Of a stretch of 64,000 nucleotides of DNA, positions 34,904 through 58,521 are shown piece by piece. The stretch is from Phycisphaerae bacterium (GTDB lineage: Bacteria; Planctomycetota; Phycisphaerae; UBA1845). The position numbers were made by a program, and so were the translations under genes. Below the pieces are notes generated by a model. That model was not told the DNA's origin. It ran no database searches and worked only from the letters and a program-made list of their open reading frames with translations. The DNA is taken from positions 17,565-81,564 of the forward strand of contig DAORAL010000018.1 of the NCBI GenBank assembly GCA_035344155.1, in the 5' to 3' direction. Position 1 is the stretch's first letter. The number at the start of each line of letters is the position of its first letter.

Positions 34904-34917
34904 ACACACACACACAC
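34904..34917. repeat. (AC)7 dinucleotide microsatellite in the flgK-flgL spacer
   Basis: taaACACACACACACACttgg read directly. Confidence 0.9.
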
Positions 34918-34983
34918 TTGGTCGAAGTGGTTTGATGGCAGTTTGACGTTCGGGCGACACGAAACCGTCGCGAGGATAAAGAG

Positions 34984-36924: not shown

Positions 36925-37151
36925 GAGCGAGGCGGGTCGAACGGTCACCAAGTGGGGGCCGTTGGTGGTGCGGTGATTTGATTTCACCGCGAAGTGCAAA
37001 AGTTGAAACGTCATCAGCGTCTCGCAGTCGGTGCTGATCGGCGCATGGTTGTCCTGCGAGGAGATGCAGGAGCACGCGAAGACAACGCGTGAGAGCTTTC
37101 CGTCGTTCGGAAGCGCGCGGCCAAAATGGATCGACTGCAGGGAGAGGCGCG

Positions 37152-37604: not shown

Positions 37605-37800
37605 TACTTTTCATTCGCGCCGATTCAAGCAGTCTTTTGCTTGTACGTAGTGAAAATCGGTGCGTGGTCTCGGTGGTAAGACGACCGCTCTGTGTGCTTA
37701 CGAGCGATTTGGGTTGCGAAGTTTCGCCGACTAAGCGAATCCAGATGGTCTTGCCAACAATAAAGCGCAGATATAGGCCGACCCGAGGAAGGAGCCACGG

Positions 37801-38040
37801 ATGTTGGTGCTATCTAGGACGCGCGATGAAACGATCATGGTCGGAGACGACATTGAAATAACCGTCGTTGACGTTCGAGGAGACAAGGTACGGTTGGGCA
37901 TCAAAGCGCCAACCACCATCCCCGTTCATCGCAAGGAAGTCTATGAAGCAATCAAGACGGAAAATACAAACGCCGCGACACTCAGTGTCGATCAAATGGC
38001 ACAGGTGATTCAGCGGCATGAACATACACACGTGCGTTAG
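37801..38040 (+). CDS. csrA: Carbon storage regulator CsrA
   Basis: 79 aa. MLVLSRTRDETIMVGDDIEITVVDVRGDKVRLGIKAPTTIPVHRKEVYEAI. Confidence 0.93.
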   Translation: MLVLSRTRDETIMVGDDIEITVVDVRGDKVRLGIKAPTTIPVHRKEVYEAIKTENTNAATLSVDQMAQVIQRHEHTHVR

Positions 38041-38088
38041 TTGGCACACGCCCATTACCTAGGGCAGAAAGTCAGGGTGCTGGCCCGA

Positions 38089-38126
38089 CAAGGATGAGAG
38101 GGTCAGCGTAATGCAATCAAGGAGGA
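38089..38126 (+). promoter_or_regulatory. Two CsrA-type CAAGGA boxes in the flagellin 5' leader, the second overlapping the Shine-Dalgarno
   Basis: CAAGGATG at 38089-38096 and CAAGGAGGA at 38118-38126. fliC ATG at 38133. Confidence 0.5.
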
Positions 38127-38132
38127 TTGCTC

Positions 38133-41664: not shown

Positions 41665-43011
41665 TTAGGGCTGCTTCTTTAACTTGAACTGGGCCGACAC
41701 AAGGTTGTGATCGGAACCGTTGGTTTCGACCGTGCCCAGGATCACGTCGTAGCTCTTGGGCACATAAAGGCCGGCCATCCCCGGTGAACCCAACACGAAA
41801 TCGATCATCGACAGATAGCTGCGGTTGTAGGTGATTCGCTTGTCTTCGGGCAGGTCGTCGAAAAATGCGGTGAGCTTGGTGTCGCCGCTGCCCACCAACC
41901 GCTGCAATGGCTCGCTATCGAACGTATCGTTGAAATCGCCGCAGATCACAAACAACGCTTGCGGATCATTGGTCAAAATACGATCGAGTTTCTTGCGGAT
42001 CGCCAGCGTTTCACCCAGGCGGATGGGACGGGATTCATCGGCGCCGCCGTGCTTGCTCTTAAGATGGACGACAAACACATCGAACGGGGAATAGCCTTCC
42101 GGTTCGATACTGACTTGGAGCAGGTCACGTTTGAATCGCATGTCCTTGCCGTCGGCACTTCTGAAATCGACGTGGCGATGGGATGTCACCTCACCAACCG
42201 GCAGTCGCGAAATCAAGCCGACGTCAATTCCCCGGGGATTATTCCCCTCAATCAGCACAACATCACAATAGCCCATTCCCGACAGGTGCGTCGCCACGAA
42301 GTTCTCAAGCACGCCGCGATTCTCAACCTCCTGAAATGCGACAACATCGGCGTCGGCTTGGCGGATGATCTTGGCGAGATTCTCGATTTCCGAATCGCGC
42401 TTGCCCGGGTAATACTCCGAATCGACGTAAGGGTCGTCGAAGTTGTCGAACAGGTTCAAGACGTTAAACGTCGCAATCTTGACAACACCATCGGTCAATA
42501 CCTTTGGAGCAGCCGGTGTGAATGCGGTTGGCGCCTGCGCCTTGGGGGTGCCTGACTTGGCGGTTGCCTCCGGCGTGACTGTGTTGCCTTGTGTCTTAAC
42601 TTCTTCGCCTTTTTTCGGGGGTTCCGGGCTGTCGATGATCTGAATGTCGCCAGCTGCCGCGATGACGATCTCAGGTTTGTCCTTGAATTTGACGATCTCA
42701 CCGACAACGCGAACGTGTTTGTTGAGAAAAAGTTTCTGCGGGTTTGATGTAAATTGACCGTAGAGATTGCTCGGAACAACGGCAGTGAACGTCGTCCGAA
42801 AATCCTTGTCGAAGTTCAAGAAGCATCGACTCCCGATATCTTTGGACGCAACCACCGTACCATAGACAACGCAGCGCGTCCCATAATGGTCAACGGTGTC
42901 GCTCCAGGATATCTGTGGAAGGCCTGGATCGAATTGGCTGTCTTCAGCAAAAGTCGGGGCGGCTGCGATGCCGAACAGAATAATGAACAAACCAATAACG
43001 TTGCGTGTCAT
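41665..43011 (-). CDS. Secreted OB-fold + endonuclease/exonuclease/phosphatase (EEP) family nuclease
   Basis: Start at ATG 43011 (MTRNVIGLFIILFGIAAAPTFA signal). OB-like RCVVYGTVVASKD...HVRVVGEIVKFKDKPEIVI. EEP: KIATFNVLNLFD, VVAFQEVEN, GDFND, GSDHN. Confidence 0.8.
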   Translation of the reverse strand: MTRNVIGLFIILFGIAAAPTFAEDSQFDPGLPQISWSDTVDHYGTRCVVYGTVVASKDIGSRCFLNFDKDFRTTFTAVVPSNLYGQFTSNPQKLFLNKHVRVVGEIVKFKDKPEIVIAAAGDIQIIDSPEPPKKGEEVKTQGNTVTPEATAKSGTPKAQAPTAFTPAAPKVLTDGVVKIATFNVLNLFDNFDDPYVDSEYYPGKRDSEIENLAKIIRQADADVVAFQEVENRGVLENFVATHLSGMGYCDVVLIEGNNPRGIDVGLISRLPVGEVTSHRHVDFRSADGKDMRFKRDLLQVSIEPEGYSPFDVFVVHLKSKHGGADESRPIRLGETLAIRKKLDRILTNDPQALFVICGDFNDTFDSEPLQRLVGSGDTKLTAFFDDLPEDKRITYNRSYLSMIDFVLGSPGMAGLYVPKSYDVILGTVETNGSDHNLVSAQFKLKKQP

Positions 43012-43140
43012 CGTAATACTCCCATAAAAACGGGGGACCGACGGCAGTTTAACGCAATTTAATCGCAATGCCACCTTTCCGGGGCGTGATGATATCGTAG
43101 GGTTGAGGCAAGGCGAGAATTGGGCTCTGGAGGCAGGTCA

Positions 43141-43698
43141 ATGTTGCGAGTGAAAAACCCGAGACAATCGAATCAACTCAGCACAGCCAGTATGGGACCT
43201 GCGGAAGCCCCCAGGGGCGCCAGCGAATCTCTTTACAAACACCGCGAATGTGAAAGTCGCCTGGACGAGATGTTTGAACGCCATCAAATGCAGGCTTCAG
43301 AGCCAACGGAATCCTCCCCGCCCCCCAAAGAGTTGTCTCCCATGGATGCGCTGCGACAGTTGTTTGTCGAAGAGCTCATTCCGGTCGTGAACGAACTCCG
43401 CGAAAAGTACGCGCCGAAGGGGCTTTGCCTGCAAATGAACGCAGAACGGTTTCTCGATGGAAAGCGTGAAATCGTTATCTCAATGCAGTTCGATGGAATC
43501 GGAATGCGCTACAACGGTACCGTGATCGACGGGGCGATCGCCTTCAGCCAGACGCGGTTCGATGAAGAAGACCGCAGCGGACTCACGGCATCCGGTGCAG
43601 CGCTTCGGACACGGGGTTTAAACGCGGATCGTTTCCGTGCGTTTATCTGTGATCGAATCGCACACCTGGTCCAACAAGCCTCGAAACGCCATCGCTGA
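43141..43698 (+). CDS. Hypothetical protein
   Basis: 185 aa from ATG 43141 (GGAGG 9 nt upstream). No motif recognised. Confidence 0.55.
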   Translation: MLRVKNPRQSNQLSTASMGPAEAPRGASESLYKHRECESRLDEMFERHQMQASEPTESSPPPKELSPMDALRQLFVEELIPVVNELREKYAPKGLCLQMNAERFLDGKREIVISMQFDGIGMRYNGTVIDGAIAFSQTRFDEEDRSGLTASGAALRTRGLNADRFRAFICDRIAHLVQQASKRHR

Positions 43699-43744: not shown

Positions 43745-45811
43745 CTATTCAGAGACCTGTTTCGTGCCCTGCGAAACAGTTGGGTCGAAGTACCGGAGTT
43801 CATCCAACGTCGCTTCAGGATTCTTTCGGTACTCTTCCATACCGGGCGGTGTCGGCATCACCTTGTTGACGTCGAACGGCGGCTGGTGCAGGTTGCATTG
43901 ATATTCCACAAAGGGCCGCACATCGTCGTAGATCGCCCTTCGCGTGAGCAGGTCGAGCGACTTCCAGACCCGAGCCTTATCCTGCGCCGTATAGTCTGGA
44001 AGTTCCATAAACACTTTGGCGATGTCGCGCCGCATGACGCCGAGTTTCTGAAGGTTTCGGCGATTGTTGCGGTCGGTCTTGGTGTCGCTGTGGTAATATT
44101 CGTACCATTCCTTCGCCGTGGCAAAGCTATTCAAGCTGCGCTCAACGTCACCGACCGCCGCTTCTTTCAAAGATCTTAAGAGGAACGACTGGATGAAAAC
44201 AGTCGCGCCCGCCTGCGTGTCGAGCGCTTCCTTGAACTGCCGCTCGATGAATGCTTTGAACGTCGTGTTATATCGCGGCTTGGTGTGCCCGTCTTCGTCC
44301 AGGTCATACTTGCGAAGATAGAAATAGTATTCCTTGGCCTCATCGAAGTTCTTCTTGCCGCCCGTCAAGTAAAGCTGACGGATGGAGCGCATCAGGAAGT
44401 TTTCGTGCCCCGTCGAGTAGTTCGGACCGGCTGTTCCTTCGACAAAATCCGGATCATCGCCGAATTGCTCCTTGCCATACTTGAGATACGCCTCATGCAT
44501 ATGGCGGATGAAGCGCGCATCGGGTTGGTAGTCAATATATGACTTTCCGGGTTCATCGAAATCAGGTTCGAGCACGATCTTGCCCTTCAAGCTCAGTTGA
44601 TCGAGGGCAAAGAAGATGAACCGAACCGCGTTCATCGTGTCTGCCGGATCGCGGTTCTTGACGTCCGTGGTAACCTTGTCACCGTAAGATGACCAGTAAA
44701 GACAATGCGAGTACGGACTGCGCCAATCGAGTGGGCCATACTCTTCCATCAATGACAACATGTAATCGATATTCATGTTGTACATGTCGGGGTCGCGAAG
44801 AACACCCGACCGGACAGCCGCGCACAGCGCCTTGAGCGATTCTGCGTTCGCAGGATCGCTTAGCAGCTTGCGCTGCCGTTCATGATGAACGATGACATCG
44901 CCGTCATCGGCAACCACGAACTGTTCCAGATTTGAATATGTTCGCAGGTACTCGGCGACAAACGAAAGGAGTGTGATGTCCGGGTCGAGGACCACTTCGT
45001 CGTTGGCCGCTTTTTTCGCCTCTTCGCCCGTCAAGTCTGGATTCAATTCCCTAAGTTCGTCCTCGCTTTTGCGTTTCATCTGTTCGACGAGACGCTTGAT
45101 CGCGGGGGTCTCTTCAATCCACTTATTCAAGTCGCGGGGCGCTTCGACAATCTCGCGAAAACGCTGAACGGCTTGGTCGTCTTCCATCACCAGCGGCGGT
45201 TCACCGAAAACCCGTTCCATTTCGACCGCGAGTTCGGCTTTGTAGGCCATGTGCGAGTCGTCGAGTTTGTCTCCGATCTTGTGATTGAAGATCCATGCCA
45301 ACTCTTTATACAACGTGATTGACTTGGGATTGTAGACGAGTCCTTTGTTGCGAAGATTGCGGATGCCGTTGGACACCCAAAGCCAGCGGGCTTCGTCACC
45401 GTATTGGCAAACCGAAATGTTGTAGGCCATGTTCCATGCGGAATAAACCCAGACGGTCGGATAGCGGGGCGCCAGCTTGCAAAGCCAATTGGAAAGCTGC
45501 ATCAGTTCGAAGAATCGGTTTTCCTCTTTCAACTCCTCGAGCCGAATAAACGCCACGTCGATCGCCAGCGCCCGCAGCGTGCCCAACTTCGTCAACAGCG
45601 CGATGTCAGGCGGAAGACCTTCGACGGTGACGTCCATGGTCATCTGCTCGTCGCGACGGATGTCGTTGATGGGGCGGACCAGCATCATGGAACAGGCAAG
45701 GCACAGGATCGACAGCGTGCCCGCAACCAATCGAACCCAACGATCGCCGCGCATCGCGCTGGATCGACCGGCGAGGTATGCCTCCATCTTCGATTGGTTT
45801 ACTTGAGCCAT
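43745..45811 (-). CDS. N-terminally membrane-anchored, Trp/Tyr-rich helical protein of unknown function (last gene of the SPFH-ABC operon)
   Basis: 688 aa from ATG 45811. One TM helix (WVRLVAGTLSILCLACSMMLV). The rest is predicted soluble and helical-repeat-like (e.g. YPTVWVYSAWNMAYNISV, LYKELAWIFNHKIG, SHCLYWSSYG). No catalytic motif recognised. Confidence 0.75.
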   Translation of the reverse strand: MAQVNQSKMEAYLAGRSSAMRGDRWVRLVAGTLSILCLACSMMLVRPINDIRRDEQMTMDVTVEGLPPDIALLTKLGTLRALAIDVAFIRLEELKEENRFFELMQLSNWLCKLAPRYPTVWVYSAWNMAYNISVCQYGDEARWLWVSNGIRNLRNKGLVYNPKSITLYKELAWIFNHKIGDKLDDSHMAYKAELAVEMERVFGEPPLVMEDDQAVQRFREIVEAPRDLNKWIEETPAIKRLVEQMKRKSEDELRELNPDLTGEEAKKAANDEVVLDPDITLLSFVAEYLRTYSNLEQFVVADDGDVIVHHERQRKLLSDPANAESLKALCAAVRSGVLRDPDMYNMNIDYMLSLMEEYGPLDWRSPYSHCLYWSSYGDKVTTDVKNRDPADTMNAVRFIFFALDQLSLKGKIVLEPDFDEPGKSYIDYQPDARFIRHMHEAYLKYGKEQFGDDPDFVEGTAGPNYSTGHENFLMRSIRQLYLTGGKKNFDEAKEYYFYLRKYDLDEDGHTKPRYNTTFKAFIERQFKEALDTQAGATVFIQSFLLRSLKEAAVGDVERSLNSFATAKEWYEYYHSDTKTDRNNRRNLQKLGVMRRDIAKVFMELPDYTAQDKARVWKSLDLLTRRAIYDDVRPFVEYQCNLHQPPFDVNKVMPTPPGMEEYRKNPEATLDELRYFDPTVSQGTKQVSE

Positions 45812-45862
45812 GATCAAACCCACTACTTATTTGCAACTCGGTGATTCCGGTCCGTATTCGAG

Positions 45863-47251
45863 TTACAAGGAGACTTCGTCAACTTCCCTTCGCATGAACA
45901 TCAGGCAACCGGCGATGAGCAGAATCGTCGTCTTGATGAGCACAAGACTGCCAATCGTCAGCAAGACCCACATCAGTGTGACGTTACGCCCGTCCACCAG
46001 CAGGTCGAGGGAATTGAACTTGTCAAAATTCGGAATAATGAAATAGATCCCCCGCACGATATTGTTGAGCAGGAACTGGGCGAGGCCCAACGATCCTTTC
46101 TCGGGGATCCAACTGACCGAGTCCAGAAGGAACTCTTTGGTCGTCGCCAGGAGCAACACCGAAAACGCCCCGAGGCACGCGACCGGAAACGAGAACACCG
46201 TGGCAAAGGCAACGCCGATCGCGGCCAGGAACGCGAGCTTGCATAGCACCAGACTCAGCGTGCGAGTCAGGTTTCCGCCAAACGTTCCGACTTGAAAATA
46301 CACCTGAACGGCATCGTCCTTTTGGAAGACGACGGTGTTGTCGTATTGAACCTCACCGAATTGAACGTATGGATTGAGGTTTTCAAACACAACTTGCAGT
46401 GTATTGTCGGGCGCAACGCAGTCCGCCGGCACACTGACGGTATGAATGCGGTCGATGTAGTCGCGGCGGGGGGCAGGGTACAGCGCGGTCCCTTTTTCCG
46501 GATCGCCAAAGATCCACGTGTACTTGACGATTTCGTCGGGTGGAAAACCTGCAACATGGTGAACATACCGCAGGTGGATCATCGATTCTGGACTTCGGTC
46601 GCAACGGACATCCTCAAATTCAAAGAGACGTGATTCGCGGGGCCAGACAGCACGCCAGCGACCAATCATTTGTGCCTGTATCTCGTTCTTTGCTCTTTCC
46701 TCGTCGTGTTCAGCCAAGCCGGAGTACTTTCCGAGTTCGACATTCTCCTGATACTTGGCTTCGGCTTCGGCGGCAAAGTCCGGAATCTTGAAATTGGAGG
46801 CATGGCGGGCGCAAAGAATCTGCCCCTTGAGTCGCTCCGCGTCAATCTCATCCTGCGCAGGTCTTGATGCAAGGTACATCGTAAAACCATAGATCATCAA
46901 ACCCGCGACCGACAAGAGCGCCGTGTCGATGCAGACAATTCCAAACCAGCGACCGACCACGTACTTCCACCGCGCAATCGGTTTGGTCATCAGCGTCAGG
47001 ATTTGCTTTCCAGAAAGATCGTCTGAAATGGACTTTGCCAAGAAGATCGAAAGGAGCGAAAGCAATGCGCTAACCGCCGTCACGGAATACGACAGGAAGG
47101 CCTGAACCGCGCCGCTAACCGTGTTGTCACCCTTGGAGGCAAACGGAAGTCCGACGAGCAGCACGCCCAGCATGAAAATAAATGAGAGCGCGACCTTGTT
47201 GCGGATGCTCTCCGAAATCGTATGGCGGGCAACGGTCCAGATACTACCCAT
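45863..47251 (-). CDS. ABC-2-type transporter permease with a ~200-aa non-membrane insert
   Basis: 462 aa. N-terminal TMs (ALSFIFMLGVLLVGLPF, VTAVSALLSLLSIFLA, WFGIVCIDTALLSVAGLMIYGF), hydrophilic insert at residues ~135-335, then three C-terminal TMs. 8-nt overlap with the ATPase gene. Confidence 0.8.
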   Translation of the reverse strand: MGSIWTVARHTISESIRNKVALSFIFMLGVLLVGLPFASKGDNTVSGAVQAFLSYSVTAVSALLSLLSIFLAKSISDDLSGKQILTLMTKPIARWKYVVGRWFGIVCIDTALLSVAGLMIYGFTMYLASRPAQDEIDAERLKGQILCARHASNFKIPDFAAEAEAKYQENVELGKYSGLAEHDEERAKNEIQAQMIGRWRAVWPRESRLFEFEDVRCDRSPESMIHLRYVHHVAGFPPDEIVKYTWIFGDPEKGTALYPAPRRDYIDRIHTVSVPADCVAPDNTLQVVFENLNPYVQFGEVQYDNTVVFQKDDAVQVYFQVGTFGGNLTRTLSLVLCKLAFLAAIGVAFATVFSFPVACLGAFSVLLLATTKEFLLDSVSWIPEKGSLGLAQFLLNNIVRGIYFIIPNFDKFNSLDLLVDGRNVTLMWVLLTIGSLVLIKTTILLIAGCLMFMRREVDEVSL

Positions 47252-48464
47252 TACCGCGATCCTTTTCGGCGGCTGAATCCGACTGACCCATCAGTCCTTC
47301 GATGATGCTGCGGTCGGCCTGCACCGGTTTGGTGGGGCCGACTGGACTGGTGGATGGGGTTGCTTCCTCGGAAGATTGACCCGGTTCGTGCGCCGGCTGC
47401 TTGGGCTTGGTGAGTTCATCAAGCACTTTCTGTGAAGGTTTGGGTGCCACTGATTCCGGAGAGGCCATCGGGACCGGCTCCGACTTGACCTCTTTATCCG
47501 CAGCTTGAATGAGCGATTGAATCAACGTGCCACCGTCGTCGGTCGCGGCTCCTAAAAACTCAGGAATAGCACCCGCCTGACCGGCCCCTGACGTTTCAAC
47601 CTTGGCGGCTTGGGCGTCTTCGACGATTTTGAGAAACAGGTTTTCAAGTCGGCCTGTGGGTACGCTGACTTCGATTGACTTCGATTCGCGGCGTTCGACG
47701 ACTGATTTGATTTCTTCAATCGTGTCGGTGCGCAGTTTGTCGGCGCGGATTTGCGTCACGTCTTTTTGCGCGAGCAGTTCTTTGATCGTGCCTTCCGCCT
47801 GAACCTTGCCGCCATAAAGAATACAAACGCGATCGCAAACATCCTCCACATCGGCGAGCAGGTGGCTGCTCAAGAGAATCGTCTTGCCCATGTCACCCAG
47901 ACGACGAATGACGTCTTTGATCTGTCTTGTTCCGATGGGGTCGAGTCCCGAAGTCGGCTCGTCCAACACGAGGAATTCCGGATCGTTGATCAGCGCCTGA
48001 GCCAACCCGATGCGACGGGCCATACCCTTGGAATATTCGCCGATGCGCCGTTTGGATTCGTGCTGCAACCCGACCATATCGAGCAGCATGTCGCGGCGTT
48101 CGCGGCGGACTTGGCCATGCTGGCGAAACAGGCGTCCGTAAAAATCCAAGGTCTCGCGTGCGTCGAGGAACCGATAGAGATACGACTCCTCGGGCAGGTA
48201 TCCGATGCGCTGTTTGATGGCGACATCCGTCGGCGGGCGCCCGAAGATCGAGATTCGTCCCTTGGTCGGATACAGCAATCCAAGCAGCATCTTGATCGCC
48301 GTGCTCTTACCCGAACCGTTTGGACCCAACAGGCCAAACACTTCACCCGGTTTGATCTCGATGTTGAGGTTCTGAACCGCGGAAACGCGCGGGCGACGCC
48401 AGAAGTCTTTGAAGACTTTGTTAAGCCCGACGGTTTGAACCACTGGAAGGGATGCTTTGCTCAT
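47244..48464 (-). CDS. ABC transporter ATP-binding protein with low-complexity C-terminal tail
   Basis: GLLGPNGSGKST (Walker A), YSKGMARRIGLAQAL (signature variant), FLVLDEPTSGLD (Walker B), SSHLL. About 110-aa Pro/Ser/Glu-rich tail. ATG 48464; TTG 48497 is possible. Confidence 0.9.
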   Translation of the reverse strand: MSKASLPVVQTVGLNKVFKDFWRRPRVSAVQNLNIEIKPGEVFGLLGPNGSGKSTAIKMLLGLLYPTKGRISIFGRPPTDVAIKQRIGYLPEESYLYRFLDARETLDFYGRLFRQHGQVRRERRDMLLDMVGLQHESKRRIGEYSKGMARRIGLAQALINDPEFLVLDEPTSGLDPIGTRQIKDVIRRLGDMGKTILLSSHLLADVEDVCDRVCILYGGKVQAEGTIKELLAQKDVTQIRADKLRTDTIEEIKSVVERRESKSIEVSVPTGRLENLFLKIVEDAQAAKVETSGAGQAGAIPEFLGAATDDGGTLIQSLIQAADKEVKSEPVPMASPESVAPKPSQKVLDELTKPKQPAHEPGQSSEEATPSTSPVGPTKPVQADRSIIEGLMGQSDSAAEKDRGNG

Positions 48465-48492
48465 GGCACCGGTGCGTTTCTCAAGTGACGGC

Positions 48493-48537
48493 TTCAAGCC
48501 TTTTCAAATCAAGCTTTCAAGCCTTTTCAGTTCAAGC
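48493..48537. repeat. 23-nt tandem direct repeat x2 in the intercistronic gap between the third SPFH gene and the ABC ATPase gene
   Basis: TTCAAGCCTTTTCAAATCAAGC t TTCAAGCCTTTTCAGTTCAAGC (20/22 identical). Confidence 0.8.
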
Positions 48538-48583
48538 TGTTTCCGTTTGCGAATCGATCCAAACCGGAAGCATTCGTCTGCGC

Positions 48584-49900
48584 TTACGGCATAACCGTGT
48601 GAAGTTGCTTCTCGGGCTCAAACTTATAGCCTTGCGATTCCTTCTTAAGCCGGTCAGCTTCATCGCGGGCCGCCTGCTCAGGATCGGGTTCGATGTGAAT
48701 CCGCAACTCGTCGGCGCTACCGGCCACAAAGTGCTTGGTTAACCCGCTCTGCTGCAAGACCCGCTGCTTGGTCTGTTCCCACAAGCGATGCACCAACAAA
48801 TCGGGCGACTCAAGATACTCGTCCATCACGGCGAGGTACTGATCGACATCGCCATTGATCTGCTGGACAACCTGCGTGTAGTACCCGCGAGCCATCCGAA
48901 TACGCTGACCGGCTGCACCCGATGCCTCGTTTTCCAGTATGTTGTCAATCTCGGATTCGAGTGCGGATTGTGCGGATTGATCGTTTGCTTCGATCGCCGC
49001 ATCGAGTCGGTCGAGCAGTCCGATATGTCGCGTGCCATCCTTATCGACGTAGGTGGTCAGCTCTCGCCAAGCCGTTCCGGCTGTCGCGTTGAGTAGCTTG
49101 ATGCGTTCTTGCTGCGCTTCCTGCACCGACTTGTCACGATCGCTTTGGGCTTTGGCGACGTTGTCGAAAGCGCTCATGGTTGGTCCTGGGACCGATGAGT
49201 GCGGGATGTCGAGCGCAACAACGCTGACGCCCGTATCCAACGCATCGAGCCGTTCGTTCACGACCGCCCGAACCTTTAAAGCAACCTCGGTTGTCGATCC
49301 TCGGGTGACATCCTCTGCCGTATAGTTTGCAACCATCGCAATCGACGCATCATCGAGCAGGGACGTGATCAACGCTTGCACTTCGTTGGTCGATTCGTCA
49401 CCAACGTTCAGCACGTATTTGCTGATGTCGTCAACCCGATACTTGACGTCCCATTGGATGTGAACGATGCCGTTGTCTGCGGTCAAAAGGGAGCCATCGA
49501 GCGCAGGGTTGAGAATGCCGCCGGCGCGAACCTGGCTCAGCGGATCGTTGATCTGCGTTTCCTTGACATCCGGCCACAGATTCAAGCTGCGAAATGCATT
49601 GTTCTTCTTGGTCGCGAAGATCAACGTTTCCTCAATCGGATATGGGAAAGCGATCGACGCGCCCGATGGTCGTACGCGGTGCAGTTTGCCAAAGCGAAAG
49701 ACGACGGCTTCGGAGTCCTGATCAACGATTCGCACGCCGCTGAATGCATACAGCACCACAAGGATGACCATGACGAACTTGAGGATATTGAAACTCGCCC
49801 GCATGGCATCCGCGAGGGACTGGTTGGCCGCGTCGAGCGGTGCCTCCCCAGGTAGATCGCCTGCCGGTGGGTGATGATGATGGTGATGCGAGTGGGCCAT
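48584..49900 (-). CDS. SPFH/band-7 (HflK-like) membrane protein with natural N-terminal hexa-His
   Basis: 438 aa. MAHSHHHHHHPP, TM FNILKFVMVILVVLYAF, SPFH core IVDQDSEAVVFRFGKL...VHIQWDVKYRVDDISKYV...GVSVVALDI, coiled-coil tail. Confidence 0.85.
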   Translation of the reverse strand: MAHSHHHHHHPPAGDLPGEAPLDAANQSLADAMRASFNILKFVMVILVVLYAFSGVRIVDQDSEAVVFRFGKLHRVRPSGASIAFPYPIEETLIFATKKNNAFRSLNLWPDVKETQINDPLSQVRAGGILNPALDGSLLTADNGIVHIQWDVKYRVDDISKYVLNVGDESTNEVQALITSLLDDASIAMVANYTAEDVTRGSTTEVALKVRAVVNERLDALDTGVSVVALDIPHSSVPGPTMSAFDNVAKAQSDRDKSVQEAQQERIKLLNATAGTAWRELTTYVDKDGTRHIGLLDRLDAAIEANDQSAQSALESEIDNILENEASGAAGQRIRMARGYYTQVVQQINGDVDQYLAVMDEYLESPDLLVHRLWEQTKQRVLQQSGLTKHFVAGSADELRIHIEPDPEQAARDEADRLKKESQGYKFEPEKQLHTVMP

Positions 49901-49969
49901 AAAACTTGCCTTCTATAGAGTCGCCTGAATCGAATCCTTAACTTCGATTACAAGAGCATGGAACCGCGA

Positions 49970-50905
49970 TCAGTTCGCAGCCGCCGCGTTCGATTTCTCA
50001 ATTCTTGTGTCCTCGTTCCAAAGATTGAACGGTTGAATCTGCGTATCGAGGAAAATTTCCGCACGATTCTGGAGGATCAACTCAATCGAGCGCAGCTGGT
50101 CCAGGAAGATTCGAAGTTCTTCATGCCCTTCGAATTTTTTGTAAATCTCGCCGACTTGGGCCAGGCCTTCGCTTTCGATGCGGGCGGCTTTGCGCTCGAC
50201 CATCGCCATGATCCGACCGCTTGCCGCCTGAGCTGCCGCTTTGATTCGCGTGCCTTCGGCGTCGCCTTCCGAGCGGTACTTGTCGGCTTTAACTTCCTGC
50301 GTCTTCTTCATGGTTGTGAAGACTGCCTGCGTGACGTTGGCAGGAAGGGCCAACTGCTTGATGCCGAACATGCAGATTTCGACGCCGAAGTCTTTTTGGG
50401 CGTCGGCGGCGATGGCGTCCATCATTTCCTTCTCGATCTCCTGAAGTTTTCGATCCGATGCCTTGGTCGAAACGAAGTCGGAGAAGTTGTGGTTACCGAT
50501 CACCGCCTTCTTAAGGCTGCGAATTCGCGTCCGCAGGGCATCCTCACCCGATTTCACTTCGTTGTATCGTGTGTGGAATTTGTATGGATCGACGATGCGC
50601 CACGTCGCGAACGTGGTCACGATGATCTGCTTGCTGTCGAGCGTGGGGGCTTCCTCAATACGACCCTCCAGCAGTCGCAGGCGCGTGTCGTACTTGACGA
50701 CGCTCTGGATCGGCCAAGGCCACTTGAGATTCAATCCGGCGAAGAAGCTTGAGTCTTCATCGTCGATGCGAATCGGTTTTTCGCTGGCGTTGCCAAAGGT
50801 CTTCTTGATCGCCACTTCTGTTGACCGAACCTGAAACGTACACCAGTACATCAGCAGGATGGCCATCAGCAGGACGGCGGCAATGATCGATGGAGTGTTT
50901 TTCAT
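49970..50905 (-). CDS. SPFH/band-7 (HflC-like) membrane protein
   Basis: 311 aa. N-terminal TM IIAAVLLMAILLMYW. FQVRSTEVAIKKTFG, LKWPWPIQSVVKYDTR, ATWRIVDPYKF, GVEICMFGIKQLALP. Ala/Glu/Lys coiled coil. Confidence 0.85.
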   Translation of the reverse strand: MKNTPSIIAAVLLMAILLMYWCTFQVRSTEVAIKKTFGNASEKPIRIDDEDSSFFAGLNLKWPWPIQSVVKYDTRLRLLEGRIEEAPTLDSKQIIVTTFATWRIVDPYKFHTRYNEVKSGEDALRTRIRSLKKAVIGNHNFSDFVSTKASDRKLQEIEKEMMDAIAADAQKDFGVEICMFGIKQLALPANVTQAVFTTMKKTQEVKADKYRSEGDAEGTRIKAAAQAASGRIMAMVERKAARIESEGLAQVGEIYKKFEGHEELRIFLDQLRSIELILQNRAEIFLDTQIQPFNLWNEDTRIEKSNAAAAN

Positions 50906-50975
50906 CTTTTGCTTCCCCGCGATTCGAATTCAGTTCGAACGCGTGATCCAGATAGAGAGTTAATTCGTTTCAATG

Positions 50976-53123
50976 TCATTGAGTATCAATATCAATGGTG
51001 CCGGTCTGCGGCTTGTCATAGATGACGATGACGTTCTTTTTCGGATCCGTGACGACCACGTACTTACGAATTTGCGCAAGCGATCGTTGGAGCATGTCGA
51101 GGTACTTGCGCACCTTGTAAAGTCGCGGCGCGGATTGATACGCCGCGATCTCCGCACTGAACACGGTCAGTTTTCGCTTGGCCTCTGTCACTTCGGCGAG
51201 GATTCGCGCCTGAATCTCCGCGATTCGTGAGGCGGCTTGTCCACCGGCAGGCACGATCCCGTTTTCCGTTCCGACCGAACCCATCAGTAATTCGTCAACG
51301 CGATCAATCGACGCCTGGATCTGCTCGGGGGTGGAGGTCGCATCTTGCGAAATGCGGTCCATTTCAAGAATCGCCCGGTCGAGTCGAAGGGCGCGATTGC
51401 GGCTGCCTGCAACGGTCGTCAGAATGACTTCAGCCTGCCCGCGGGCCTCTTCAATGAAGGCGTCCTTTTCCATTTCCGCTTTGACGACTTCCTGGAATGC
51501 CTTGGCCACATCGTCGGTGGGGTGCGCTTCCTGAACGCCGCAGAAGAGAATCTCAACGCCGATACCCAGTTCATCCGCCCGCTGTTGAAGGATGCGATGG
51601 AGCGTCTTGTTGACCTCGGTGCGGCCCGGGCCAATGATCCGGTCAACGTCTACGCTGGCGGCATAGTCGGTCAGGACCTGATAGGCGATTGCCTCGACCA
51701 AACGTTCGGGCTCGTAGTATTCATAAAGATATTCGTGAAGATCTTTGACGCGGTATTGGATGTTGACCGAGACCATCAGCAGCCCGACCGCGACAGCTTT
51801 GCCTTCACTTCCGGGATCACTTTCGACGCTGTTTGCGTCTTCGGCGTCAACATCGACGTCGGCATCGGAATCGAAATTGGTGATATCGGGGCTGGCGACG
51901 ACCAACATCATCTCTGCGTTGAACTCGTGCTTCTCGCCCCAGAGGATCGGTTTCTCGCGCAACTTCCCTTTGACCAACTCGGTGTTGGTTTCCTTGTCCT
52001 GATCCACGGATGATCCAACCGTCAATGTCCGCACGCGGTCCACCCGGGCGCGATAGACTTTGTCGATTGGCCAGGGGCACTTGAAATGCAAGCCGGGGGA
52101 GAGCACCTCGTCACTGCTTTGGAGGCGGTGTCCGAATCGCTCGATCACGGCTTGTTCGTCGGCGTCCACGAATACGATGGTCGACAGGGCGATCAGTGCA
52201 AACACACCAAACGCGAGCATCGGCGCCATCGCCCGTTGGAGCAGTTCGTAGAACCAGGTCTTGCTGACTTCAAATCCGAATTGATAGTTGATCGCGTCGG
52301 CCAGCGACCGGGCAATTCCGCCCGTTTCGGTGATCAGCGCCAGCAGGCGACTGTCGAATGCCGGCCTGCTTTCCTGCCCGATGGTCCTCGGGCGGTAGAA
52401 GTCCAGAATGAAGTTGGCGATGAACTCGATACCCAGGACCAGCAGGGTGATGCGAATGATGTAGGTGACGATCGCTTCGGGGTTGGGCAGGTCACGTCCC
52501 TGAAGCGCGATGGCAATCAAAACGAACAGGCACGCCAACGCGTTCCCAGCAAGGAAACTCGCTCCGGAGCGAAGCATTCGCCAACCGGGCATGCGGGCCA
52601 TTCCTGCCGTATATCGCGAAAACAAAAACGACAGGAACCCGATCCCGCCGACAAACGCCATCGCCGGTCCCGAGTATTGCGTTTCATTCCACTTACCGCT
52701 GAGCGGGGTTCCGAAATCCCAATCCCAGGCCCAGATCGACGCACCGATATGGTAGAGCGCGACAAACAGCGCAGCTGTCGGTACCACCCAACGCAGAATC
52801 CACGCGAGCCGTTTTCTTTCGATCAGGTAGGCTTCGTCTTCGGTGTCGAAGATTGCGCCGACACCTTCTTGCGAACGGGAACGTTTGAGTTCTTCAGCTT
52901 CGAGCCGTTCCTTGGCCGTTCGACGACGCTGGCTGTAGACGATGGAGATAACCGGCCAAATGATCACGCCGCCCAGCATGAAACGTGCCGTCGCAAGAAT
53001 GACATCGGATTTGCAAATCCTTCCGACGACAAACATCACGATAAAGAAGGTCGCCTGGAAGATGAATCCGACGAGGGCGGTCAGTTGGGCACGCCGGTCT
53101 TTTAATACAGAAGAATCACTCAT
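50976..53123 (-). CDS. Polytopic membrane domain fused to an SPFH/band-7 (HflK-like) domain
   Basis: 715 aa. About 330 N-terminal residues with about eight hydrophobic helices, then VFVDADEQAVIERFGHRL...PGLHFKCPWPIDKV...VSVNIQYRVKDLHEYLY...GIGVEILFCGVQEAHP and a coiled-coil tail. Confidence 0.85.
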   Translation of the reverse strand: MSDSSVLKDRRAQLTALVGFIFQATFFIVMFVVGRICKSDVILATARFMLGGVIIWPVISIVYSQRRRTAKERLEAEELKRSRSQEGVGAIFDTEDEAYLIERKRLAWILRWVVPTAALFVALYHIGASIWAWDWDFGTPLSGKWNETQYSGPAMAFVGGIGFLSFLFSRYTAGMARMPGWRMLRSGASFLAGNALACLFVLIAIALQGRDLPNPEAIVTYIIRITLLVLGIEFIANFILDFYRPRTIGQESRPAFDSRLLALITETGGIARSLADAINYQFGFEVSKTWFYELLQRAMAPMLAFGVFALIALSTIVFVDADEQAVIERFGHRLQSSDEVLSPGLHFKCPWPIDKVYRARVDRVRTLTVGSSVDQDKETNTELVKGKLREKPILWGEKHEFNAEMMLVVASPDITNFDSDADVDVDAEDANSVESDPGSEGKAVAVGLLMVSVNIQYRVKDLHEYLYEYYEPERLVEAIAYQVLTDYAASVDVDRIIGPGRTEVNKTLHRILQQRADELGIGVEILFCGVQEAHPTDDVAKAFQEVVKAEMEKDAFIEEARGQAEVILTTVAGSRNRALRLDRAILEMDRISQDATSTPEQIQASIDRVDELLMGSVGTENGIVPAGGQAASRIAEIQARILAEVTEAKRKLTVFSAEIAAYQSAPRLYKVRKYLDMLQRSLAQIRKYVVVTDPKKNVIVIYDKPQTGTIDIDTQ

Positions 53124-53987
53124 GATGTCAGAATGCGTTTCTCGCTTTTTGACAGCGTTGGGACAGTGGTGCGCCCATCAGGGGCACCTCACAATCATTT
53201 CTACGGAATCCACGAACCCGCCGAACCGGACACCTGCCACCTCGTTTGCGGTTTGCTTGCCCCATGTCGGTGCCCTGAAGTTCTGTTCGTGCCCTGAGGT
53301 TCTGGCACGACCGACGCTGGTTGGGGCACGACCATACCGACCGGGGCGGGGGAGCTTACCGCAATTACAGCCCATTGCCAAGCTTGCACGCCCATCCGAT
53401 CACGCATGCAATCACCTGTGCATAACCGACTTACGATGCCCAAAGACTGCCCGCCATACCACCTTGAGGGCGGGTTTGCCAACCGGGCATTCACGACGAT
53501 GCCACAGTGAGCGGGCGCCTCATGGTCACCGGTTATCAAATGCGCAAAAGATCAACAGCCTGCCAGGACAGCAGGTAGGAATCGAAAGGACTGCACGGGG
53601 ACAGCAACGACAGCTCGCACACTACCCAAATTCCCGCAATCGCACAATTCCGAATCTTCAGAACCCTGCCAGGCGTTCAATGCCAAGCCTTCGAAACCTG
53701 GGCCTGAAATCGGAACCGTTGCCCAACCAACTTGGAATTCGGGCTCTCTCTCTGCCTACGCATCCTGCTCAAATCAACCGCGACCACCTTCAAGGCGCAA
53801 CATCACCGCAGTTTTCACGGTTACAGGAGGTACGATCCACCACGCGAAACGGTTCAGAGAATTTCTGATATTCTTATTCGCAAGCTCAGGATGGCCCCCG
53901 GGGGCAGCTGATGGATCATGGATTGTGCCCCGTGTGTCTGGACGTCGATCCGGTCGTTTCCTATGCTCTCAAAGCTGTACAACCCAA

Positions 53988-54018
53988 AACCACAAAGGAT
54001 CAGAACCACAAAGGATCA
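53988..54018 (+). promoter_or_regulatory. Perfect 15-nt direct repeat AACCACAAAGGATCA x2 (16-nt period) just upstream of the ABC-2 permease start; possible CsrA/translation-control site
   Basis: 53988-54002 and 54004-54018 are identical. Each carries a GGA core in the context ACAAAGGATCA. ATG at 54027. Confidence 0.3.
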
Positions 54019-54026
54019 TCTGCCCC

Positions 54027-54992
54027 ATGATGAAAATGCTGGCCATCACGATCACGACTTTCACCGAGACGGTGCGTCAACCGATCTTCGGGATCGTGCT
54101 GCTCGCGACATTGCTGCTGATGCCCCTCAATGTCGGGTTGGCGGCGTTTACCCTCAAAGACGACAACAAGCTCCTCATGGAACTCGGGCTGTCGACCCTC
54201 TTGCTGAGCGGGTTGTTTCTAGCTTCCTTTAGCGCGTCTTCCGTATTGACCCGTGAAATTGAGAACAAGACCGTTCTGACGGTGGTGAGCAAGCCCGTCA
54301 GCCGGCCCGTATTCCTGATGGGAAAATACGTCGGTTTGATCCTGGCGTTGGCGCTTGCGTTCTATATCGGGTTCCTTGGTTTCTTCATGTCGGTGCAGCA
54401 CAAGGTCCTCGAAAGCAGTGCCGACGAATGGCATTGGCCCGTACTCGTCTTTGGCCCCGGTGCGATGATGGCCGTCTTTGTCATCGCCGGTATTCTAAAC
54501 TTCTTTCGAGACAAGCCTTTTGTCGCAACCGTCTACAAACTGGGGACGCCGCTTCTGACCTTTGGCGCAATCGCCATTTGCTTCCTCGGGCGCTCGTGGG
54601 AAGTGGGGCCGTTCAATCTCGGACCGTTTGGCATTGATATTTTCAAAGCGGCCTTTCTTGTGTTCTGCTCGGTGATGGTTTTGACAGCCGTCGCGTTGGC
54701 AGCGTCGACTCGGCTTGGTCAGGTGATGACTTTGCTGACGTGCGTGTCGATGTTGATGCTGGGCATCATCTCGGACTACCTTCTAAGCCAAGCCGCCCAG
54801 ACGTCGACGTTCGCCCGGATTGCGTATCTGGTCATTCCAAACTTCAGCATCTTCTGGATCATCGACGCGGTTAATGGTGGGATGAACGTACCAGCCAAGT
54901 ATGTGGCGTTGAGTACCGCGTATGCAGCCGGCTTCTCGTTGTCTGCATTGTTCCTGGGGACCGCCCTCTTCCAACGCCGCGAAGTCGGTTAG
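54027..54992 (+). CDS. ABC-2-type transporter permease (no adjacent ATPase)
   Basis: 321 aa from ATG 54027 (MMKMLAITITTFTETVRQPIFGIVLL). Six hydrophobic helices. LTREIENKTVLTVVSKPVSRPVFLMGKY is typical of ABC-2/NosY-like permeases. Confidence 0.8.
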   Translation: MMKMLAITITTFTETVRQPIFGIVLLATLLLMPLNVGLAAFTLKDDNKLLMELGLSTLLLSGLFLASFSASSVLTREIENKTVLTVVSKPVSRPVFLMGKYVGLILALALAFYIGFLGFFMSVQHKVLESSADEWHWPVLVFGPGAMMAVFVIAGILNFFRDKPFVATVYKLGTPLLTFGAIAICFLGRSWEVGPFNLGPFGIDIFKAAFLVFCSVMVLTAVALAASTRLGQVMTLLTCVSMLMLGIISDYLLSQAAQTSTFARIAYLVIPNFSIFWIIDAVNGGMNVPAKYVALSTAYAAGFSLSALFLGTALFQRREVG

Positions 54993-55337: not shown

Positions 55338-56375
55338 TTAGCTGGCGGCCAGGTATCCGTTTTCCAGCGCGTGGCGAATCTTCTTCAGCGCCTTGTTCTG
55401 GATCTGCCGCACACGCTCCTTGGTGACACCGATGATCGTGCCGACCTGCTCGAGCGTCTTGGGCGTGGGCACTTCGGAAGCCTTCGGCGCCAATGCGAAA
55501 CGCTCCAGGATGACCGTCTTCTCGACGTCGGACAGGGAAGCCGCGTTGGCTTCGATAATGTCCTTCAACTCGACGATGCAATCCGATTCCACCTGCGCCC
55601 GTTGGGTTTCAACGTGGTCGCTCTTCTCGATGGACGGATCGTATTCGACCGGGAATGTGCCACGATAGCGGCTGGCCTTCATGGCAACCCGCGAGAAACT
55701 CTTGAGAATCGCACGGCATGCGTAGGTGCTGAACTTGAACCCACGTCCGCAGTCGAACTTGTCGACGCTGCGGAGGAGCGCCATGTTGCCTTCGCTGATC
55801 ATCTCGTTGAAGTCAATATTGCTCAGTCGGGTGCGTTTGGCCATCGCCAAAACGAGCGGCATGTTGAGTTCGACCACCTGTTCGCGCACCTTCAGCTCCC
55901 AGTCGCCCCAGGCGATTAAGGTTCGGGCGGCTTTGGGCGTCAGGGGCCGATCCGTATAGCGATTGAGGATATTGCAGATCTTCATTCGCGTCAGGTTCAA
56001 CCGCAAGAAGAGCTGCTTTTCCTGGTTGCCGGTCAGCGTCGGCGCACGGGTCGCCGGTGAGATGCGGCCAGCCGTGATCTCCTTCGGCGGTTCAAATCGA
56101 AACCCGTCTGAAGGCGACAGCTTGGCTGCAACCCCGAACAACTCCACATCGGCTTTGGCCCGATGCAGATCGGGATGATCCATGTGCGGTACCGGCTCTG
56201 TGCAGAGGCGATGAATAATCTGGCGATTTTCGTCGCTAAGCATGTGCATGAAATCGCCAGTCGGAGGAAGCGGAGAACCGATACCCTCCGATTGGGTGGT
56301 TGGCGATTGGGTGGTTGGGTTTGGACCGTTGGCAACGGTCGTGTCCACTGTCGTTTGTGCTTGCGATTGAGCCAT
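55338..56375 (-). CDS. Sigma-70-family RNA polymerase sigma factor (RpoH/group-3-like) with an atypical N-terminal region
   Basis: Start at ATG 56375 (GGGAGA upstream). Region 2: LVLAMAKRTRLSNIDFNEMISEGNMALLRSVDKFDCGRGFKFSTYACRAI. Region 4: TLEQVGTIIGVTKERVRQIQNKALKKIR. Confidence 0.85.
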   Translation of the reverse strand: MAQSQAQTTVDTTVANGPNPTTQSPTTQSEGIGSPLPPTGDFMHMLSDENRQIIHRLCTEPVPHMDHPDLHRAKADVELFGVAAKLSPSDGFRFEPPKEITAGRISPATRAPTLTGNQEKQLFLRLNLTRMKICNILNRYTDRPLTPKAARTLIAWGDWELKVREQVVELNMPLVLAMAKRTRLSNIDFNEMISEGNMALLRSVDKFDCGRGFKFSTYACRAILKSFSRVAMKASRYRGTFPVEYDPSIEKSDHVETQRAQVESDCIVELKDIIEANAASLSDVEKTVILERFALAPKASEVPTPKTLEQVGTIIGVTKERVRQIQNKALKKIRHALENGYLAAS

Positions 56376-56573
56376 GATTCGTCTCCCTGGCACGCGTTGG
56401 CGACTGGTCGTCATCAACGCACTTGGCGAAGTCCCCCCTTAGGTCCCTCTTCCGATCCGCCTGACTTTGGCTCGTACCCTGAAAATCTGTCCCCTATCAG
56501 GTACGTCCTCTAATGAATACTACGCACAACAAACCCGATCGGATCTGACGATTCGGTCTGAATATGTCAGTTC

Positions 56574-58324: not shown

Positions 58325-58521
58325 GGTGGCTGCGTTCCACGCACCGTGGCGAATGCATAGACGTCGGCGCAAAAGGCAAGCGCCTCGCGTCACAAGATGC
58401 TACGGCAAGGAGTATATCGCGCCTCAAAAGCAAGTGGGGGGCATTTGGTCAGAACTTGTCGGTAACGAGCCGATGTCCGGGACTCGATGCACTCGATCAA
58501 CCGGCTCGCCAGCACCAGCGA

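Follow-up and report, generated by a model that had tools for sequence, protein, structure and literature searches.

What do HflK- and HflC-like SPFH proteins do when they are encoded in one block with an ATP-binding cassette (ABC) transporter and a membrane-anchored protein of an unnamed family? This question is raised by a locus at positions 43745-54992 of a 64,000-nucleotide stretch of DNA from a Phycisphaerae bacterium (contig DAORAL010000018.1 of GenBank assembly GCA_035344155.1, positions 17565 to 81564), which we call the window throughout. The Phycisphaerae have unusual envelopes and an unusual cell division, and their biology is little known. An initial annotation of the window had proposed six genes of this locus, encoding three SPFH paralogues, an ABC ATPase, an ABC-2 permease, and an anchored helical protein, as an undescribed system. 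We find that seven genes, including a divergently transcribed second permease gene, form one selected and conserved unit of the Phycisphaerae (Planctomycetota) and that their functional linkage is strongly supported. These genes probably work in one pathway, and the full model developed below, a single envelope system in which an SPFH ring surrounds an ABC-2 machine, has in our judgment about an even chance of being correct.

A conserved block of seven genes

Six open reading frames (ORFs) run head-to-tail on the reverse strand, and our ORF calls confirmed the co-directional arrangement that had first been annotated. In order of transcription, g1 (50976-53123) encodes a protein of 715 amino acids in which a membrane domain with seven transmembrane (TM) helices is fused to an HflK-like SPFH/coiled-coil domain, g2 (49970-50905) an HflC-like SPFH protein of 311 amino acids with an N-terminal TM anchor, and g3 (48584-49900) an HflK-like SPFH protein of 438 amino acids that starts with MAHSHHHHHH. 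They are followed by g4 (47244-48497), encoding an ABC ATPase of the DrrA/GldA/NodI type with 417 amino acids if read from a TTG codon or 406 amino acids from its likely start, the ATG at residue 12 (48464), then by g5 (45863-47251), encoding an ABC-2 permease of NosY fold with 462 amino acids, and by the last gene of the block, g6 (43745-45823), encoding an anchored helical-repeat (TPR-like) protein of 692 amino acids from a GTG codon or 688 amino acids from M5, the start used in the public annotation. Consistent with the spacing of 39-120 nt or overlap noted at the outset, the gaps measure 70 nt (g1-g2), 69 nt (g2-g3), 86 nt (g3-g4; 119 nt with the ATG start of g4), and 39 nt (g5-g6; 51 nt with the M5 start of g6), while g4 and g5 overlap by 8 nt. 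The seventh gene, perm2 (54027-54992, forward strand), encodes an ABC-2 permease of NosY type that lacks a periplasmic insert. Its ORF spans 53925-54992 with a GTG at 53925, and the probable start is M35 at 54027, so that the divergent permease previously described across a spacer of ~900 nt is indeed found there (spacer at 53124-54026).

We assessed conservation in two sets of loci, counting for each gene only those loci as testable whose contig extends far enough. The genome set was anchored on g6 and comprises 81 loci, namely one genome-scale contig (L001) and the 80 highest-ranking of at least 597 species-representative genome loci, while the metagenome set was anchored independently on the N-terminal domain of g1 and comprises the best 80 of 310 loci; the metagenome loci and those from metagenome-assembled genomes (MAGs) may overlap. 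Among the genomes, g5 is present at 73 of 74 testable loci, g4 at 69 of 70, g3 at 64 of 66, g2 at 60 of 63, g1 at 55 of 58, and perm2, always counted as the divergent and adjacent gene, at 53 of 55. The metagenome contigs gave the same picture, with g2 at 54/54, g3 at 44/44, g4 at 38/39, g5 at 36/36, g6 at 31/32, and perm2 at 62/63 testable loci. Gene order and strand are constant across the genome loci, where the lowest protein identities are 24-34% (48% for the ATPase g4) and the median gaps between high-scoring segment pairs inside the block are 52-143 nt. The SPFH genes lie sandwiched between perm2 and the ATPase gene in ~95% of loci, and the most widespread neighbor family outside the block is common to at most 17 loci.

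This retention of seven genes while their surroundings are shuffled is a classical signature of functional coupling, and the synteny in relatives on which the original proposal depended is thus decisively conserved. The proposed unit itself holds, except that it has seven members and not six, with perm2 as well conserved as the others. Chance as an explanation of the ORFs or of the block is contradicted because the ORFs are long, their family matches are significant, and ~95% or more of testable loci are conserved.

Three loci are exceptions to the full block (L012, L053, and L023), the first two of which are discussed with the model below. At L023, on a MAG chromosome of 5.67 Mb (CP070744.1), the block is broken within g3, and its halves lie at 3.69 Mb and 1.53 Mb. 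The L023 side holds the remainder of g3 together with g4, g5, and g6, while a second locus at a distance of 2.2 Mb (L084) holds a perm2-like gene, g1, g2, and a 93-amino-acid fragment. The break reflects a genuine inversion with loss of an intact g3 or else a faulty assembly; since it passes through g3, it represents a rearrangement or assembly break rather than a clean boundary between modules.

Complete blocks of the Phycisphaerae type were also found on two contigs with other taxonomic labels, JANQQE010000027.1 ("Alphaproteobacteria bacterium"; locus L004, 75-91% identical to the window) and CAZPFK010000001.1 ("Vicinamibacteraceae bacterium"; locus L058). Both are probably mis-binned or mislabeled MAG contigs.

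Three SPFH proteins of HflK and HflC type

The assignment of SPFH domains to the first three genes was borne out by matches to Pfam Band_7 (PF01145) with E-values of 1.8e-18 for g1, 5.1e-21 for g2, and 3.1e-19 for g3. Against the NCBIfam model of HflK (TIGR01933, cut-off 159.4 bits), g3 scores 132.2 bits and g1 113.6 bits, and g2 reaches 114.0 bits against HflC (TIGR01932, cut-off 134.4 bits), which leaves all three below the equivalog thresholds. PDB sequence searches led to the same families, with HflK matched by the family profile of g1 (1e-23) and by g3 (1.1e-14) and HflC matched by g2 (1.4e-20). The two HflK-like proteins g1 and g3 share 22% identity over 423 residues (E-value 7e-9) and are paralogous across the whole SPFH and coiled-coil part. 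Positive-inside analysis predicts for g2 and g3 one N-terminal TM anchor each and a periplasmic SPFH domain. For g1, family-averaged hydropathy and positive-inside analysis indicate seven TM helices with the N-terminus inside, which would therefore place its SPFH domain outside, as in HflK/C.

The conservation peak of g1 is not its SPFH domain but a predicted cytoplasmic loop ahead of TM7 (residues 241-300; 52224-52403, reverse strand), where family alignments show dense invariant columns with the consensus DFYRPR...RPAFDSRLL..ISEPGGIARS.ADAINYQFGFEVS.TWFY.LLQR. The six TM helices that precede this loop (residues 1-240; 52404-53123, reverse strand) have a weak, colinear likeness to the membrane domain of cation diffusion facilitators (CDFs). 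The Cation_efflux model (PF01545) matches 13 of 46 g1 relatives at E-values of up to 1, the best of them at 4.4e-7 and 30.3 bits (cut-off 26.6 bits), and three of six relatives tested exceed the cut-off. In this match, residues 20-71 of g1 fall on positions 3-54 of the profile and residues 148-245 on its positions 98-197, and the models of MamV, MamB, CDF TIGR01297, and ZitB weakly match the same segments. A link between the g1 N-terminal domain and the CDFs is a lead that we consider about evenly poised; it is kept as a lead only because a profile of this domain matched no CDF, nor anything else, in the PDB. The remote-homology search that had been suggested for this domain gave colinear matches among relatives and an empty PDB profile search.

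Protein g3 begins with a His-rich cytoplasmic tail (residues 1-21; 49838-49900, reverse strand), followed ahead of the TM helix by the conserved motif PLDAANQSLADA(M/L)RASF. The initial annotation had seen this start as a natural His tag. The His-rich start is real, but it belongs to a family-wide tail and is not a quirk of one genome: Before a conserved PLDAANQSL motif, the tails of 48 homologues contain 253 His among 1,425 residues (17.8%), often as HD/HG repeats, with three or more His in 31, five or more in 23, and at most two in 17 of the 48 proteins.

One ATPase and two different ABC-2 permeases

The predicted ATPase g4 matches Pfam ABC_tran (PF00005, 2.8e-31), in agreement with its first assignment, and its translation contains a Walker A motif (GPNGSGKS), a signature motif (YSKGM), a Walker B motif (LVLDEP), and an H-loop (SSH). 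Its best NCBIfam matches are DrrA (208.7 bits), GldA (196.4 bits), and NodI, all below their own cut-offs. The tail of g4 is a variable, disordered linker of ~100 amino acids rich in Pro, Ala, Ser, and Glu that ends in a conserved amphipathic motif, ADRSIIEGLMG (residues 394-404; 47286-47318, reverse strand). Across 71 homologues, the C-termini read AD(R/Q)SVID(G/S/E)LL behind variable low-complexity linkers, and a loose and uncontrolled pattern fits 103 of 108 homologues. This terminal motif looks like a tethered docking peptide.

The g4 tail of the window (47247-47600, reverse strand) contains two further look-alikes of this motif, TLIQSLI and KVLDELT. The docking motif may hence be repeated within the tail.

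Of the two permeases, perm2 scores 28.1 bits and g5 25.3 bits against ABC2_membrane_2 (PF12679, cut-off 27.2 bits), i.e., g5 remains just under the threshold. Nevertheless, the original view of g5 as an ABC-2 permease with an insert of ~200 amino acids is well founded, since its family profile finds NosY in the PDB (1.6e-7) and its AlphaFold2 (AF2) model (predicted local distance difference test [pLDDT] 88.0, predicted template modeling score [pTM] 0.82) matches NosY in Foldseek with probability 1.00 and a template modeling score (TM-score) by target of 0.57-0.65 over the membrane part. The remote-homology search, which had been asked for the insert, gave the NosY fold, a top Foldseek match to LptG that has global TM-scores of only 0.25-0.32, and a β-sandwich in the insert. 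According to the AF2 model, the insert (residues ~125-325; 46277-46879, reverse strand) lies between TM3 and TM4 and consists of three helices followed by a sandwich of nine strands. Positive-inside analysis places it on the periplasmic side, and the family alignment shows many invariant polar residues in it. The sandwich resembles CBM61, CBM16, BcsB, MAM, and GOLD domains with probabilities of 0.95-1.0, but with E-values of 0.01-0.05. We had also considered residues 150-234 of g5 as an N-terminal domain of PBP5/PBP2a (profile E-value 0.003-0.02) and rejected this candidate after the fold search gave no support.

Protein perm2 and the C-terminal half of g5 share 27% identity as well as IPNF and RREV motifs, and these sequences identify the two permeases as paralogues. 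The block thus has a single ATPase gene for two distinct permeases, an arrangement shared with LptB2FG, and perm2 is likely the heterodimer partner of g5.

The anchored protein g6, a probable solenoid

As first noted, g6 lacks any recognized motif, and we obtained no match in Pfam, NCBIfam, PDB sequence, or PDB profile searches. It was originally called a Trp/Tyr-rich anchored helical protein, of which the anchor (one N-terminal TM helix at residues ~30-52), the all-helical remainder, and the richness in Tyr (5.1%) were corroborated, while its Trp content is ordinary (1.7%). The AF2 model of g6 (pLDDT 86.6, pTM 0.84) has ~30 helices, Foldseek searches of the PDB and BFVD gave only generic TPR solenoids (TM-score ~0.12, E-values of 7.6e-3 or higher), and a per-member Pfam scan detected TPR_14 in five of 47 family members (E-values of 0.006 or higher). 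The model itself is confident, and by it g6 is probably a TPR-like solenoid with a helical-repeat fold.

The g6 family is large, with 2,356 representative clusters at E-values of up to 1e-3, 898 of them at up to 1e-30, in at least 597 species-level genomes; the cluster names of distant relatives give "Planctomycetota" or no taxon. Among 137 alignment columns conserved at 90% or more, 16 are Trp or Tyr, and the invariant residues include polar and aromatic ones in AWNMAYNISV, E.RW.WV.NG, and DD.H..YK. This pattern suggests a predicted binding site rather than a passive spacer. The solenoid is probably periplasmic, as judged from the residues flanking its anchor.

A model for the block and its alternatives

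The model that we favor joins these proteins in one system. Two copies of g4 together with g5 and perm2 would form a heterodimeric ABC-2 machine in which ATP hydrolysis by g4 moves the periplasmic insert of g5 rather than simply pumping a solute, like in NosFY and LptB2FG, and the insert would either deliver cargo to the periplasmic solenoid g6, a receiver or scaffold, or remodel this protein. The SPFH proteins g1, g2, and g3 would co-assemble at the periplasmic surface of the cytoplasmic membrane into an HflK/C-like ring or cage, whose rim the seven TM helices of g1 would thicken and which would confine or organize the transporter within a membrane patch of its own. The C-terminal motif of g4, the loop 241-300 of g1, and the N-terminal motif of g3 are candidate ties on the cytoplasmic side. 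The large soluble domains—three SPFH domains, the g5 insert, and the g6 solenoid—are all predicted to be periplasmic. For a physical enclosure or binding of the transporter by the SPFH proteins, we see a chance a little short of even. As for the cargo, divalent metal and a glycolipid or glycan are two weak leads, neither of which we find probable.

Several observations weigh against this model. The modules are separable, because perm2|g4-g5-g6 stand at L053 with the SPFH genes missing at the locus and g6 stands by itself at L012, and our conservation counts cover the 80 best-scoring loci of each set, out of at least 597 genome loci and 310 metagenome loci. HflK/C of Escherichia coli acts on a distantly encoded FtsH, and the SPFH trio of the block could likewise act at a distance; its contact with the transporter is something that we infer. 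The orientation of g6 is based on only a modest charge bias (K+R of 4.6 before the TM helix versus 2.5 after it). Neither cargo lead is strong: E-values are 0.01-0.05 for the β-sandwich matches, and the CDF likeness is sub-threshold in g1 of the window itself, which reaches significance for no CDF model. Furthermore, inspection of the alignments shows that the metal-site residues of CDFs (HxxxD/DxxxD) are replaced in the g1 family, with no conserved Asp or His in TM2 and the consensus AGNALAC in TM5, and that the C-terminal cytoplasmic domain of CDFs is missing, given that TM6 is followed by the conserved loop, TM7, and the SPFH domain.

The separable modules lead to the question of whether the block might be two neighboring systems. 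In that case, g1-g3 would be ordinary HflK/HflC modulators of an FtsH encoded elsewhere, perm2, g4, g5, and g6 an independent ABC-2 system, and their adjacency a result of co-regulation (e.g., in an envelope-stress regulon) or of the transporter being an FtsH substrate, and not of one complex. HflK and HflC are indeed the nearest families for all three SPFH proteins, and L053 keeps the transporter genes and g6 without them, just as L012 keeps g6 alone. The initial annotation had pointed to the absence of the usual SPFH partners, FtsH and NfeD, from the neighborhood. Domain scans of the window (Pfam and others) covered selected ORFs including every ORF of at least 550 amino acids, and no FtsH or NfeD domain was found among the scanned ORFs of these 64 kb. 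This observation is correct but a weak argument, because hflKC is not adjacent to ftsH in E. coli either. The two loci are unlinked there, so that a missing ftsH neighbor is meaningless for or against two systems. What speaks for one system is that g1, g2, and g3 all remain under the HflK/HflC equivalog cut-offs and that a third paralogue with a seven-TM fusion is foreign to canonical HflKC. The boundaries of the block also fall exactly at perm2 and g6, so that transporter genes flank the SPFH genes in ~95% of loci, and the split in CP070744.1 runs through g3 and thus marks no clean module boundary. On balance, two independent systems seem unlikely to us.

Two other alternatives concern the cargo and function of the block. 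In a metal-handling version of our model, a divalent cation would be collected by the His tail of g3, moved or presented by either the CDF-like domain of g1 or the ABC-2 transporter, and loaded by the g5 insert and g6 onto a client in the periplasm, comparable to the handling of copper by NosDFYL. This version would make sense of the 17.8% His and the frequent HD/HG repeats in the g3 tails of 48 homologues, of the colinear Cation_efflux matches in 13 of 46 g1 relatives (three of six tested above the Pfam cut-off) and the weak MamV, MamB, TIGR01297, and ZitB matches on the same segments, and of NosY, part of a copper-enzyme assembly machine, as the nearest solved permease. However, g1 of the window is significant for no CDF model, the PDB profile search returned no CDF, the canonical TM2 and TM5 ligands are replaced and g1 has no CDF cytoplasmic domain, at most two His occur in 17 of the 48 g3 tails, and no metallochaperone or metalloenzyme gene lies within the block, which makes this version quite improbable. 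An extractor or exporter of a glycolipid or glycan, with a permease pair and β-sandwich like LptB2FG or of Wzm/Wzt type and g6 as the periplasmic receiver, deserves no more credence. Its best arguments are the g5 insert at TM3-TM4 as in LptF/G with LptG at the top of the Foldseek list, the resemblance of the sandwich to carbohydrate-binding modules and BcsB domains (probability 0.95-1.0), the two paralogous permeases per one ATPase, and the 16 Trp/Tyr among the 137 most conserved columns of g6. Yet the global TM-scores to LptG are 0.25-0.32 and the E-values of the sandwich 0.01-0.05, β-sandwiches are a very common fold, LptF_LptG is unmatched and LptB reached with 148 bits against a cut-off of 240, and no glycosyltransferase or polysaccharide gene is conserved beside the block. 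Adjacency of unrelated ordinary genes by chance, finally, could appeal to Band_7, ABC_tran, and ABC-2 families each being common in bacteria, but order and orientation are conserved at ~95% or more in ~80 species-level genomes and independently in ~80 metagenome contigs, with proteins that are 24-45% identical, while the flanks are not, and we give this explanation hardly any weight.

The one-system model, in which the SPFH ring encloses the ABC-2 machine, can be extended to a bolder proposal that we consider doubtful: The block would represent a new class of "caged transporters," i.e., a periplasm-facing SPFH cage that has an ABC-2 mechanotransducer with its solenoid partner as dedicated and co-encoded client, present across the Phycisphaerae and possibly essential for their envelope, in which the CDF-derived rim of g1 and the His tail of g3 feed metal into the enclosed space. 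If a caged transporter is real, the SPFH microdomain would be part of the machine and not a regulator of a protease. The block would then give an HflK/C-like SPFH set a genetically defined alternative, non-protease client in hundreds of species, which bears on the roles of SPFH assemblies other than the regulation of FtsH-type and NfeD-type proteases. Such a membrane machine, conserved across the class, is also an entry point to the biology of the Phycisphaerae, for which cultured carriers are at hand with Poriferisphaera sp. WC338 and strain ZRK34.

The spacer and the flanking genes

At ~900 nt, the g1-perm2 spacer is exceptionally long compared to the 140-400 nt of most relatives. Alignment with the loci L004 and L005 revealed several conserved sequence islands, one of which is a promoter-like element (TTGGCA-17 nt-TAAGCT; 53353-53381, reverse strand) that occurs once in the window. 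It is sigma-70-like by consensus match only and lies ~230 nt upstream of the g1 ATG, so it would imply a long 5' leader. An Rfam scan of the whole window found no RNA family, and the spacer therefore holds no known riboswitch or small RNA. Our promoter and terminator scan was uninformative, given that promoter-like sites were rarer than in shuffled sequences and that all terminator-like sites fell inside coding sequence, with none in the intergenic gaps of the window.

Downstream of g6 follows a convergent ORF of 192 amino acids (43120-43698, forward strand), for which neither a Pfam match nor a TM helix was found. Since 17 loci have this ORF at the same place, the unit ends with g6. Beyond it lie genes for a membrane-anchored or secreted EEP-family protein (endonuclease/exonuclease/phosphatase, ExeM/NucH-like; 41665-43074, reverse strand), which is found downstream in five closer relatives only, and for a cytoplasmic FHA-GAF-HisKA-HATPase histidine kinase (39823-41490, reverse strand), which in 11 related loci follows g6 at a distance of ~1 kb. 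We rejected both as parts of the block, since they are linked to it in some relatives only (five and 11 loci, respectively) with the convergent gene in between. In L004 and L005, the kinase has 91-92% identity as against only 73-76% for g6, and it is thus under much stronger constraint than its neighbors; it may be the regulator of the block.

Still further downstream is a run of flagellar genes (27668-39581, forward strand) encoding FlgF/G-type rod proteins, FlgA, FlgH, FlgI, FlgK, an FlgL-like protein, and flagellin. A flagellar link of the block was dismissed because these genes are not conserved beside it in relatives. The same lack of conservation applies to the two genes just past perm2, which encode a sigma-70 family protein with regions 2 and 4 (55338-56417, reverse strand) and a MacB/FtsX-type permease with a periplasmic core domain (57035-58393, reverse strand). 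A distant gene of the window encodes a cytidylyltransferase-NeuB-SAF fusion of the sialic/nonulosonic acid synthase type (9619-11382, reverse strand) that may be tied to flagellin or surface glycosylation.

Comparison with known systems

HflK and HflC form a 24-mer cage around FtsH (7VHP, 7WI3, 9CZ1). The block shares with this E. coli system the adjacent genes for K-like (g1, g3) and C-like (g2) proteins, the N-terminal anchor (a single TM helix in g2 and g3, but seven in g1), and the predicted periplasmic location of the SPFH domain, and by analogy only, a large ring or cage that fences a membrane patch would be expected. The differences are that the block has three paralogues instead of two, all of them below the equivalog cut-offs, that g1 is fused to a seven-TM domain with a highly conserved cytoplasmic loop and g3 carries a His-rich tail, and that its genes are conserved next to those for an ABC-2 transporter and a TPR-like protein and not next to a protease gene. 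Eukaryotic stomatins are a further comparison, as SPFH proteins that act on a transporter rather than a protease, but such partnerships are not encoded in operons and involve single SPFH proteins on the cytoplasmic face. One published account describes stomatins as down-regulating many channels and transporters (PMC5383999).

For the transporter, the nearest systems are NosDFY(L) and LptB2FG. NosFY drives the periplasmic protein NosD (7O0Y), and the NosY fold of the g5 membrane domain as well as an ATPase of the same ABC-2 class are common to the block and to NosDFY(L) (7O0Y, 7ZNQ, 7QBA); by analogy, ATP hydrolysis may drive a periplasmic partner rather than a flux of solute in both. Different from NosDFY(L), the periplasmic element of the block consists of a permease insert and, in addition, a solenoid encoded by its own gene, the two permeases are different paralogues where NosY is a homodimer, and SPFH genes are included. 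No nosD, nosL, or nosZ was found in the block or the scanned ORFs of the window, and no neighbor is conserved beyond the block. LptF and LptG have a β-jellyroll between TM3 and TM4 (5X5Y, 8UFG), the same insertion point as that of the modeled periplasmic β-sandwich in g5, and LptB2FG (5X5Y, 8UFG, 6MIT) likewise pairs a single ATPase gene with two six-TM permeases that are paralogues of each other. However, only g5 of the two permeases in the block has an insert, LptF_LptG (PF03739) is unmatched, and g4 scores 148.1 bits against LptB (TIGR04406, cut-off 240).

GldAFG of the Bacteroidota resembles the block in its NosY-like permease class, a large accessory membrane-anchored protein, and GldA as the second-best NCBIfam match of g4. 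It differs in the score of this match (196.4 bits with a cut-off of 402.6), in the lack of any likeness between g6 and GldG, and in having no SPFH genes. The CDFs (YiiP, ZitB, MamB/MamM/MamV) have in common with g1 six TM helices and weak colinear matches in a minority of its family, and many of them typically have a His-rich cytoplasmic tail, though here it is on g3; they are set apart by metal-site residues and a cytoplasmic CDF domain that g1 lacks, and CDFs of the PDB were unmatched. In PADLOC, the defense models gave a generic ABC/AAA ATPase likeness for g4 and nothing for the seven other proteins scanned. We accordingly rejected membership of the block in the Nos, Gld, Lpt, or defense systems, for which scores lie below cut-offs and partner genes are missing, and the ABC part and the 688-amino-acid protein, whose match to a characterized system such as these would have spoken against the original proposal, do not belong to one (GldA 196 against 402.6 bits, LptB 148 against 240 bits, and no GldG, NosD, or NosL partner).

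The claim that the pairing of SPFH proteins with an ABC-2 transporter is undescribed also held, as targeted full-text literature searches found no description of it. A 2009 survey of prokaryotic SPFH operons nowhere mentions ABC transporters (PMC2636767), and the paper on Poriferisphaera heterotrophicis ZRK32 (eLife 2024) mentions none of the genes of the block (PMC10945688). The block most resembles a combination of two known machines, an HflK/C-type scaffold and an ABC mechanotransducer of the NosFY/LptB2FG type. It is made of known kinds of parts in a new and undescribed combination with three new domain architectures, its unrecorded building blocks being the fusion of a seven-TM domain to HflK, the NosY-fold permease with an Lpt-like insert, and the unnamed family of anchored solenoids outside Pfam.

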